The notes below the pieces were generated by a model. It was not told the DNA's origin, did not search any database, and saw nothing but the letters and a program-made list of their open reading frames with translations. A program made the translations under genes and the position numbers. A DNA stretch of 64,000 bases from Stegostoma tigrinum (lineage: Eukaryota). Where the stretch lies: the NCBI RefSeq assembly GCF_030684315.1, contig NC_081397.1:12610421-12674420 (forward strand), written 5' to 3'. Of the stretch, positions 45,293 through 48,117 are shown piece by piece (the first letter of the stretch is position 1; each line of letters starts with the position of its first letter).

Positions 45293-45331
45293 ATTTTAAC
45301 ACAAATGTGAAATTTTTGTTTCAGGATTATT
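45293..45331 (+). CDS. Candidate 39-nt stalk exon of an LRC-like Ig receptor
   Basis: TTCTTCTATTTTTTTTCAAG| ... |GTACGT; phase 1-1; xFNTNVKFLFQDY. Confidence 0.45.
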
Positions 45332-45595
45332 GTACGTTTTCAGAGCAAGTAACCTGGGGGGGGGTTAGCCCAGCCAGAATACCACAGAGCCAGTAGCCGC
45401 TCATACATACTCCACATTGTAGCTCACAAGGAGAAGACCTCTCCCTGGGTCAGAATTTGCATGTTCAAGCCCCACCACAGAATGTATTGATTATCATAAA
45501 AACAGACTGATTGCAAAATGAAGCAAATTTGGAATTTTCTTCATGTTAATGCCCCCCTAATTTACCAGGGCATGTTCTTTTTGTTTTCACTGAAG

Positions 45596-45715
45596 ATCAT
45601 CATTCTATTGATCAGCTATTTCGCCTGTGTCTCACAGCTGTTGTTTTGGTTCTGCTTGCAACCTTTCTTGCGTTGGAACTGAGAAATAAATCCCAGGAAC
45701 TGAAGAATATAAATG
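45596..45715 (+). CDS. Candidate transmembrane exon of an activating LRC-like receptor (Arg in TM)
   Basis: TTCTTTTTGTTTTCACTGAAG| ... ATG|GTAAGA; 120 nt, phase 1-1, open; HHSIDQLFRLCLTAVVLVLLATFLALELRNKSQELKNIN resembles OSCAR/FCAR/LILRA NLxRxxxAxLVL. Confidence 0.6.
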
Positions 45716-45939
45716 GTAAGAAGGTGTGTTGATCCTATTAATTATGATAGTTTTCTCATTTCCTTTCATACTTACATTCAAAATAAAAGATTGTGAAATT
45801 TAAAATGAGGATGTTAATACTAATTATGGGTAGACTTGCCAATATCTGAAGTTACTGTTAGTTCAATATCTTAACCTTGTGTATTTGAATATTCAAGAGA
45901 ATTTTGTAGGATATTTACAGAGCTTGAAATATTTAATAT

Positions 45940-46330
45940 TTTCTCATGGGACATGGGTATTGCTGCCAGGCCAGTATTAATTGTCCTGTTCCTAGTTGTC
46001 CCTTGAGGAGGTGGTGGTATGTGCCACTGCAGTCCATGTGCTGTAGGGTGACCCATAATGCCCTTTGAGGGTCAGTCATGATCTTATTGAATGGCAGAAA
46101 AGGCTTGATGGGTCAGATTGTTCCTATTTCCTCTGTCCTCAGGGAGCGCACTCCAGGGTTTTCAGCCAGTGACACTGAAGAAACAGGTAATATAATTCCC
46201 ATTCGAGATGGTGACTGGCTTGGAGTGGAACTTGAAGAGGGTGATATTCCAATGTATTGCCCTGGTCGAAGATGGAAGTAGTTTTGGGTTTGTAAGGAGC
46301 TGTCAAAGGATCTTGGTGAATTTCTGCTGT
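45940..46330 (-). mobile_element. LINE 3' tail fragment (tail shared with the 21420-type SINE), with a CR1 tail piece inside
   Basis: CATGGGTATTGCTGCCAGGCCAGTATTAATTGTCC...GAGGAGGTGGTGG motif. Confidence 0.5.
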
Positions 46331-46595
46331 ACATCTTATGCAGAGTTAACATTTTGAGCCCATGACGCCCCTTCAAAATAATTCTGGGAAATTTTGTCAA
46401 ATGAATGTTTCCTCTTTTCCCTTTTCCTGACAAAGGGATCTGCTCCTTGCATTGAAAGTTCTATTTGACAATTTCTGATGACAATGAAATGAACAGTTGT
46501 TTTGTAGTTTTGAAAAGTCCGAACCAAATTTCAAACAGGTTTTAGACAATGAATGCTTGGGAATGATTTTTTAAATCTCTTTTTTTTCCTGCAAG

Positions 46596-46657
46596 TCCAA
46601 CGATGTCCAGGGGCAACATCACAGACAGAACAATCAATTCCTTCAGTGGTTCAATAA
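46596..46657 (+). CDS. Candidate terminal exon (short Tyr-less cytoplasmic tail)
   Basis: Polypyrimidine TCTCTTTTTTTTCCTGCAAG|; in phase with the TM exon: VQRCPGATSQTEQSIPSVVQ*; AATAAA at ~46772 and ~46783. Confidence 0.45.
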
Positions 46658-48117
46658 TTCAACAAGGACATTCGCTCTGGTCCATCACAAGGATACAACA
46701 AAAGGATTCCTCATCAGTTGCAAGCTGCTGGATTCCGAGAATAGGGATGTAGATTGACTCATCAAGAACAAATAAAATGCAAAATAAAGCTGTGTGTCTA
46801 GACTTGCCCCAATCCCATGAACAAAGATAAAAGAAAATGAAAATTATGACAAAAGGGAACTGAGGAATTGCATTTGTTCAGCAAGGGTGTAGCCTGATGA
46901 CTGTGTGGTCACTGAATCTAATGACAGGCATGTACGCAATGTATGCAACGTACAATGGACTGAGAAATGTTGTGTTGGGACCATTATTGTTTTTCTCCAT
47001 TGTTGGAGCTGTGAACTGAATTTCACCATTGAATTTGGAACTTTGATCAGGAGGTTGCTTCTATTTCATTTTTAAAAGAGCAAGAAACTCATGTTTGCAT
47101 TTGGACATTGACCAGGAAAAATAATTGTGGGTTAATTCTTGTTCGAAGAGCACTGCAGACATTTCCGCACCAGGATATGCTAATCAAAATGACTGGCAGC
47201 TGATTGCATGTTGTATCGGTCAATCAAAGGAAATTCAGTGCTGGCCAGCAAACCACAGAAAATGTTGAAAAAAAGAAATCACAAATGGAACTCATTGTAT
47301 TTTTTCAACTCCAGAAGGTTGCATGCTCAGAAGGTGCAAGAGGGAAGCTGTGTGTGTCTTCTACTTCATCAAGCTTTATGTTCAATGAATGAAATGTTGA
47401 AATTTCTGATAACAGACTCCCAGTTTCTGAGAAAGAAGTGAATGTTTCTCAGAGCCTGATGGAACGGTGGTCACAGGATTCAACCAAATATAATCCCATG
47501 TGCCTGTGATACAACACATTGTTCAATGATTCTATGAAGACCTCCACACATTGTGATGACAGTTATCAAACTGGCAAACTTAGTTTCTTTTAATTTATCC
47601 ATTTAATTTTATCTGCCTGTCCATATGCACGTGTGGCAGATGTAACCGAAGAGAACTGAGCTGAAATCATAATCATTACTTGGAATGCCATGTTGCTTAG
47701 TTTAACTTTGCTAAAGCTACACCTTTAAGAATAAATTGTTAATTCCTGTTCAAGTTATAAACTTGGTGTTGGATATCTGTTGTTTTTTGTAGTCATAGGC
47801 ATGTACAGCATGGAATAGATTTTCCAATCCAATTCATCTACACTGACAAGATTTGCTTTACCAAAATGCAACACCTCACATCTATCTAAATTATAGTCCA
47901 TCTGCCACTCCTTGAGCCATCTCATCAAGGTCCAATTATACACTGAGATAACCACCTTCAGTGTCCACGACACCAGCAACTGTGGTGTCATCTTCCATAT
48001 CTATTAAGATTGTGCTGACTTTTACCTTGATGGTTTCTTGATAGTTTGTTTTCCCACACGAGGACAAACCTCCTCAATGATAACTGAAACTGATTTGTTC
48101 ATAACAGTGGAGAGTAT

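Follow-up and report, generated by a model that had tools for sequence, protein, structure and literature searches.

A transmembrane exon with a leading arginine in a zebra shark immunoglobulin cluster is probably a severed duplicate of an SRCR/Ig receptor exon

The window analyzed here is a 64,000-nucleotide stretch of the zebra shark (Stegostoma tigrinum) genome (NC_081397.1, positions 12,610,421 to 12,674,420 of the forward strand; contig C56 below), and the element of interest is a transmembrane (TM) exon at 45596-45715 in which an arginine precedes the hydrophobic helix. Comparisons within the genome suggest that it is a duplicated copy of the TM exon of a shark receptor composed of SRCR and immunoglobulin (Ig) domains and coded on contig C53, that it has been cut off from any usable ectodomain, and that it is probably a pseudogene fragment. 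The initial annotation had described the locus as the intact 3' half of a live activating receptor. We consider this very unlikely, as ectodomain exons are not found in the window and are broken in its two closest copies, in line with the suspicion, voiced in the same annotation, that the Ig exons are dead.

The parent gene lies at C53:16,938,290-16,971,250 on the minus strand and is annotated as 'DMBT1-like'; its protein, P0003 (XP_048379655, Stegostoma tigrinum), matches C53 with 100% identity. Over nine exons it codes for a signal peptide, three SRCR domains, an LILR-type Ig domain, two further SRCR domains, and the Arg-containing TM segment, followed by a stop codon and a polyadenylation signal. 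The TM exon is the last, with the stop three residues after the Glu that closes the helix and an AATAAA 21 nt beyond the stop. An NCBI isoform of the parent, P0006, opens instead with a zinc-finger-like exon. The best PDB matches of the parent Ig domain are PIR-B (E 1.4e-10), LILRB1, and LILRA6, and the Ig exon retrieves P0003 together with P0001 (Chiloscyllium punctatum), P0002 (Hemiscyllium), and P0004 (Cetorhinus). Two of the relatives, P0001 and the Rhincodon protein P0005, are orthologues of the parent; they carry a QxxR TM segment and, like the parent, stop right after it, whereas P0002 and P0004 end without a TM segment. When the last SRCR domain and TM segment of P0003 are used as a query, only P0001 and P0003 are matched among 138 candidates, and the occurrence of the combination is thus shown no wider than carpet sharks. 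A TM-profile search of longer proteins likewise recovers only the two clusters of the parent and its relatives among 7999 candidates scored, none of which has the window's own TM segment.

Nine matches to the TM exon are present in the genome, eight on C56 and one on C53 (67%), and a DNA search gives the same set. The homology is not confined to the exon: window positions 45002-55214 are colinear with C53 from inside the last intron of the parent gene through 12 kb of its 3' flank. This match, at ∼70 to 82% and including intron and flank, indicates that the C56 module and the parent exon derive from a single locus, and we infer that duplication proceeded from C53 to C56, as it is the C53 version that is intact. 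The window exon is 71% identical over 31 amino acids to the C terminus of the Chiloscyllium protein. In the family alignment the Arg and the Glu at the C-terminal end of the helix are invariant. The residue three positions before the Arg is Gln in the window, in the more divergent C56 copies described below, and in the Chiloscyllium and Rhincodon proteins, and is Tyr in C53; the parent keeps Tyr-Ser at positions -7 and -6.

The initial annotation proposed three exons splicing in phase. The pieces at 45293-45331, 45596-45715, and 46596-46657 do have GT and AG ends and join to a stop-free peptide, but on sequence comparison only the middle one is established as an exon. Exon 1 is probably an intron of the duplicated segment, since in the C53 parent the last SRCR exon is spliced directly to the TM exon and an in-frame counterpart of exon 1 is lacking. 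Exon 3 is absent from the parent and present only in the eight C56 copies, and its status as a real terminal exon is uncertain. The two AATAAA signals reported downstream of the stop are indeed at 46771 and 46783, and are the only pair within 20 nt of each other among the 57 AATAAA on the plus strand of the window. The Arg at the start of the TM segment, followed by 17 hydrophobic residues, and the short tail, which lacks Tyr as modeled, also hold up. The QDY motif taken as a likeness to FCAR and OSCAR does not: it comes from the probably false exon 1, at positions -12 to -10 relative to the Arg, and its Tyr is displaced by three residues from that of the family at -7, a position taken by His in the window copy (His-His-Ser).

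The boundaries of the TM exon differ from those of the parent (Table 1). Its acceptor aligns with the CAG acceptor of the parent gene and reads AAG, as do the acceptors of all three proposed window exons (3/3), whereas the parent gene uses CAG or TAG throughout (8/8). Its GTAAG donor is the alignment counterpart of the parent's AATAAA. We find no ATG opening the TM frame in the window copy. Nor is there an Ig or SRCR exon in the window in a search with 37 Ig-pattern queries and the parent protein P0003, in which a control recovered the Ig remnants of a closely related copy; the window matches returned were those of two false-pattern queries (one derived from a repeat) and the TM segment itself.

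Table 1. Coordinates of the transmembrane module and associated features in the window
Feature	Position	Strand	Remarks
Transmembrane exon	45596..45715	+	Phase 1 to phase 1; AAG acceptor, GTAAG donor; copy of the last exon of the SRCR/Ig receptor gene on C53
Arg codon at start of TM segment (QxxR)	45622..45624	+	Present in 9/9 copies in the genome; also in the proteins of Chiloscyllium and Rhincodon
Hydrophobic helix of 17 residues, then Glu at C-terminal end	45625..45675	+	Mean Kyte-Doolittle 2.85
CAG at the site of the C53 parent's stop codon	45694..45696	+	From alignment with the parent
Exon 1 of the initial annotation, probably intron of the duplicated segment	45293..45331	+	TAG and GC donor in 5/5 copies of the ∼90% class; out of frame in parent
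Candidate terminal exon (exon 3), C56 specific, status uncertain	46596..46788	+	Stop at 46655-46657; AATAAA at 46771 and 46783
Segment homologous to C53:16,939,003-16,926,334	45002..55214	+	Colinear pieces, 70-82%: parent's last intron, TM exon, 3' flank
Start of block with 99.9% identity to the sequence from C56:12,416,525 on, and to a further copy in inverted orientation at C56:12.21-12.23 Mb	45002..64000	+	

The segment starting in the parent's last intron accounts for the eight C56 copies, which lie in a cluster of FCRL-like, zinc-finger, and histone genes beside broken Ig exons. Two of these, at C56:12,417,121 (+) and 12,226,631 (-), are protein-identical twins of the window exon. At 1.0 to 1.5 kb upstream of the TM exon, both twins carry the first half of an FCRL-like exon, which ends in TGA and is joined via a piece of repeat to a remnant of an LILR-type Ig exon; the remnant has stops and frameshifts and is located behind a long interspersed element (LINE). 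A homologue of the remnant lies at C53:16,914,914-16,915,492 (-); it too is a broken LILR-type Ig exon, interrupted by a short repeat. With 35 of the 37 Ig-pattern queries, a search of 50 kb upstream of one twin and 20 kb upstream of the other revealed no further Ig- or SRCR-like sequence. Four sequencing runs from one sample cover introns and repeats at the twin locus, as expected of DNA-like reads, and among the joints listed none corresponds to a modeled intron.

The remaining five C56 copies, at 84 to 87%, form what we call the ∼90% class, and are broken in a different way. In each of them the TM exon is preceded, at 4.9 kb, by an open FcR-type Ig exon, with both Cys residues in four of the five and with matches to FCRL5 and FcgR in PDB (E 1e-4 to 4e-3), but this Ig exon is not spliced to the TM exon as in an FCRL-like receptor: the Ig donor is CT in 5/5, compared with GT in 5/5 other examined copies of that exon, and the TM acceptor has changed from AG to GG in 5/5. 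An in-frame AG lies 27 nt upstream of the lost TM acceptor and could serve in its place for splicing, although the Ig donor is lost as well. A second Ig exon is broken in the one copy tested. All five also have an in-frame TAG in exon 1 and a GC exon-1 donor, and exon 3 is broken in every case (a TGA in four and a 14-bp deletion in one), while the Tyr-Ser at -7 and -6 from the Arg is kept. On C56, no SRCR exon was found among the 150 candidates scored out of 351, and a local TM profile revealed no further Arg-TM exon in the other Ig clusters examined on C42, C49, C53, and C56. As judged from the genome sequence, none of the eight C56 copies is joined to a usable ectodomain, and all eight combinations appear broken or orphaned.

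The left side of the module is obscured by a run of Ns, and the initial annotation raised the prospect of an Ig exon hidden in the gap at 43687-45001. This is unlikely, since the bases visible among the Ns are CA/CT repeat and the twins of the TM module have only broken Ig remnants in the corresponding place. Moreover, the left part of the window (1480-43686) is duplicated at C56:12.85-12.895 Mb with 99.2 to 99.3% identity, and this duplicate continues without Ns into a ∼4-kb CA/CT repeat and lacks a TM module over the following 25 kb; it thus offers no hidden upstream Ig exon, and the promoter-like stretch left of the gap and the TM module are not neighbors in either duplicate. A weak and broken Ig-like remnant is present at ∼12,902,000 on C56, in the region beyond the left-part duplicate. 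Paired exons are offset by 238.1 to 238.9 kb, which places the window across the joint of what looks like a ∼239-kb tandem repeat on C56.

The initial annotation had called the receptor half intact-looking. In neutral simulations with 10 to 20% substitution, the frame stays open in 51 to 69% of runs and the Arg is kept in 65 to 81%; an intact-looking frame therefore carries little weight, both outcomes being expected in more than half of neutral runs. The exon is also no better conserved than its flanks in the comparison with the parent, with 23 of 98 sites differing (0.235) against 0.244 to 0.275 in three flanks. The hallmarks of a duplicated pseudogene fragment are found, including an intact parent elsewhere, coduplicated flanks, disabling changes, and no excess of conservation, with conservation of exon 3 as the exception. 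The severance from any usable ectodomain exon is what makes the window copy a likely pseudogene fragment, and the loss of the family Tyr and the AAG acceptor are counted for the same reading.

Several observations weigh against it. The bases directly before 45002 read N, so that the true upstream sequence of the window copy is hidden, and in the twins a phase-1 GT donor of the LILR-type remnant lies ∼1.07 kb ahead of the TM exon, as expected of a real gene. The ratio of nonsynonymous to synonymous substitution rates (dN/dS) is 0.44 against the parent (13 nonsynonymous and 9 synonymous changes) and 0.65 between the C56 classes (4.5 and 2.5), although both are small counts, and no copy has an indel in the TM exon. 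Three changes seen on C56 fit together, namely the absence of a stop after the TM segment, GTAAG in place of the polyadenylation signal, and an exon downstream. This exon 3 has a pyrimidine tract and two AATAAA signals and is unusually conserved, with 6 mismatches in 205 bases compared with 174 in 2196 overall between two C56 classes, a hint that the C56 lineage may at one time have been live. The low divergence has P values of 0.003 for a fixed window and 0.13 for the best window, and the low-divergence tract extends ∼100 bases beyond the exon on either side.

We propose that the TM module came to lie behind FCRL-like and LILR-type Ig exons through an old segmental duplication, whose breakpoint was probably a repeat in the parent's last intron, and that the resulting combinations decayed and were later amplified in recent duplications. 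Whether the window copy is itself a product of recent duplication is a separate matter, as it may be an assembly duplicate (a second haplotype) of C56:12.42 Mb joined across the gap. Identity to the twin block begins at 45002, exactly the first base after the Ns, and runs at 99.93 to 99.98% over pieces of 12,177, 16,660, and 30,001 bases, and the copy of the window's left part goes on into repeat and other sequence lacking a TM module. Set against this, the left part differs by 0.7 to 0.8% from its own duplicate, the third copy is inverted, and C56 is rich in real recent duplications, such as at least 27 copies of one FCRL-like exon; the Ns, moreover, may mask sequence instead of marking a gap. 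Three copies rather than two would produce a 1.5-fold step in depth at the junction; the depth of twin-specific contigs is similar upstream and downstream (e.g., 31 and 28.6 versus 26.7 to 29.2 in X1), but depth does not give copy number and is not used as evidence. The junction at 45002 may be a tandem-duplication breakpoint or an assembly join; an assembly duplicate is plausible enough to keep in view, if not the better bet, and is compatible with a severed duplicate of the parent exon.

A second explanation, compatible with the module being dead now and differing on its origin, is that the C56 module is what remains of a once-functional second receptor, with an LILR-type Ig domain, a QxxR TM segment, and a 27-residue tail, acting as the activating partner of nearby LILR-type genes with neutral TM segments. 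The lost stop, the new donor, and the last exon form a consistent set and make such a gene a fair account of the origin; the donor of the Ig remnant is in phase with the TM exon, dN/dS is below 1, and the closest intact relatives of the remnant (E about 1e-8 and 1e-5) have uncharged TM segments. However, the matching Ig remnant on C53 is itself broken and lies 23 kb downstream, not upstream, of the TM exon, the twin changes from Ig-flank to parent-intron homology within a repeat, and the upstream Ig exon of the ∼90% class is a different one. On balance we find this history rather doubtful.

The case for a live FcR-gamma-coupled receptor, with ectodomain exons missing from the assembly at the N run, draws on the open TM frame, the retained Arg, the strong donor, the candidate last exon with two AATAAA signals, the conserved exon-3 region, an FcR-gamma-like TM exon elsewhere in the genome, and the upstream junction concealed by the Ns. 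The 99.9% identical twins are contiguous upstream and have only broken Ig remnants, the three acceptors are AAG, the Tyr is lost, no protein among the 7999 scored has this TM segment, and the TM exon is not extra conserved; there is little chance that this reading is right. Transcription of the exons from the GC-rich stretch at ∼43.2 to 43.7 kb or from an upstream zinc-finger gene, yielding a TM-only peptide that could sequester FcR-gamma or a noncoding RNA, is more improbable still, despite the promoter-like stretch 2 kb upstream and the zinc-finger-like start of parent isoform P0006, given that the TM frame lacks an ATG and that the adjacency of promoter and TM module is absent from the duplicate and both twins.

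With the window copy read as a severed duplicate, it is the parent that bears comparison with known activating receptors. As described in PMC6557307 and PMC2413239, receptors of the leukocyte receptor complex (LRC), including LILRA, FCAR, OSCAR, GPVI, NCR1, and TARM1, are coupled to FcR-gamma by NxxR TM segments, which combine an essential Arg with a DYT consensus and an acidic C-terminal end. The initial annotation was right that the exon codes for a type I receptor TM segment with the Arg positioned as in these proteins. All shark copies, that of the window among them, share the Arg at the TM N terminus and the acidic C-terminal end, and the parent adds a very short tail, a Tyr-Ser upstream, like DYT, and an Ig domain closest to PIR-B and LILR. 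The spacing of Tyr-Ser in the parent and the ∼90% class is presumably equal to the mammalian one. The differences are also clear: the Asn three residues before the Arg is replaced by Gln (Tyr in C53), the parent has no Asp before the Tyr, the DYT consensus is missing in the window, and the parent ectodomain is mostly SRCR while the window copy has none. A signal peptide and ectodomain spliced to the TM segment are found in the parent and in none of the eight C56 copies, and an LRC-type C2 Ig domain in the parent only, the window having no Ig exon. The likeness to mammalian NxxR segments is one of motif, with no significant alignment, as the three PDB matches of the TM profile were all judged to be chance. 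A search of 1.84 billion representatives with the TM profile gave a 2788-amino-acid bacterial surface protein as its sole match, which showed no matched stretch and was taken as chance; the same search missed the shark proteins, so its blank is weak.

A candidate adaptor is coded in the genome. Contig C59 has an FcR-gamma-like TM exon at C59:9,569,577 (best PDB match E 3e-11, versus 6.5e-9 for CD3 zeta), and there is a second zeta-family TM exon at C14:34,316,392. By analogy, the C53 parent would be an activating receptor in which the TM Arg pairs with the acidic residue of the FcR-gamma dimer. A ligand bound by its SRCR/Ig ectodomain would then signal through the immunoreceptor tyrosine-based activation motif (ITAM) of FcR-gamma, with the dimer bringing the ITAM that the parent's three-residue tail lacks.

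The C56 arrangement resembles that in Xenopus, where, according to PMC2413239, PMC4536121, and PMC6557307, NxxR TM exons occur on XFL (FCRL-like) and SLAM-like receptors that are expressed and associate with FcR-gamma. In both, one kind of TM exon lies beside different ectodomain families in an expanding birth-and-death cluster (FCRL-like and LILR-type on C56); in contrast to the expressed, FcR-gamma-associated Xenopus receptors, all eight shark combinations are broken or orphaned. The parent is also an annotated member of the chordate 'DMBT1-like' and 'M130-like' proteins (P0001, P0003, and P0004), in which SRCR repeats are interleaved with Ig domains, but these automatic names take no account of the Arg-TM segment. 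CD163, WC1, and DMBT1 proper are not known to have a charged TM segment, where they have one at all. SRCR-plus-Ig proteins are common among chordates in ESM Atlas clusters.

The wider neighborhood is rich in related genes. A large FCRL-like Ig cluster extends over C56:9.0-15.2 Mb and C53:16.33-16.37 Mb, with at least 27 copies of one exon at 96 to 97% identity, and an FCRL-like gene with four open Ig exons begins at C56:12,683,361, ∼9 kb beyond the right end of the window; scans found no TM exon in it. LILR-type Ig genes with uncharged TM exons are at C56:12,293,885 and 14.27 Mb, C53:5.36-5.40 and 16.89 Mb, C49:0.40-0.43 Mb, and C42:39.47 Mb, and that at C53:5.36-5.40 Mb is the one with interleaved SRCR exons. 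Within the window there is a C2H2 zinc-finger exon at 24540-25034 (+) with five fingers above the Pfam cutoff, together with H2A and H2B frames at 29957-30409 (-) and 32733-33179 (-), named by eye and with more copies at C56:12.88 and 12.91 Mb, and many LINE fragments elsewhere. The GC-rich promoter-like stretch at 43200-43680 contains two GCGCATGCGC-type palindromes, which we take to be NRF1-like, and a possible minus-strand donor near 43362. A 292-amino-acid single-exon frame at C56 ∼12,405,500 (+), 11.5 kb upstream of the twin, resembles a seven-TM receptor by eye.

On its own the window feature is most probably a dead duplicate of an ordinary kind, and its interest is that it points to a live-looking C53 gene relevant to comparative immunology. 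A 2014 study (PMC4016189) reports no homologues of FcR-gamma, FCRL, or C2-only LRC receptors in shark genomes and places their origin in bony fish; the zebra shark genome holds an FcR-gamma-like exon, clusters of FCRL-like and LILR-type Ig genes, and an Arg-TM receptor. The presence of these families in sharks may already be covered by recent papers in subscription journals and by automatic annotation. LRC- and FcR-like regions of fish have reportedly been treated in later work that may touch on sharks. Within the open-access literature, with most subscription journals outside its scope, we found no paper on a shark SRCR/Arg-TM receptor. We tentatively suggest, as a view falling a little short of an even chance, that the C53 parent, with its five SRCR domains, LILR-type Ig domain, and QxxR-type TM segment, is an activating scavenger receptor of sharks coupled to FcR-gamma, kept across carpet sharks and paired with the neutral-TM SRCR/Ig gene at C53:5.36-5.40 Mb, a pairing that is a guess. 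The Arg-TM exon would then be a mobile activation module that predates the split of sharks and bony fish, with the C56 copies reflecting its shuffling onto FCRL-like and LILR-type ectodomains, as in Xenopus. If the parent does bind FcR-gamma, the LRC-type activation module would date to the jawed-vertebrate ancestor and could drive an SRCR pattern-recognition ectodomain, a combination not found in the literature searched.

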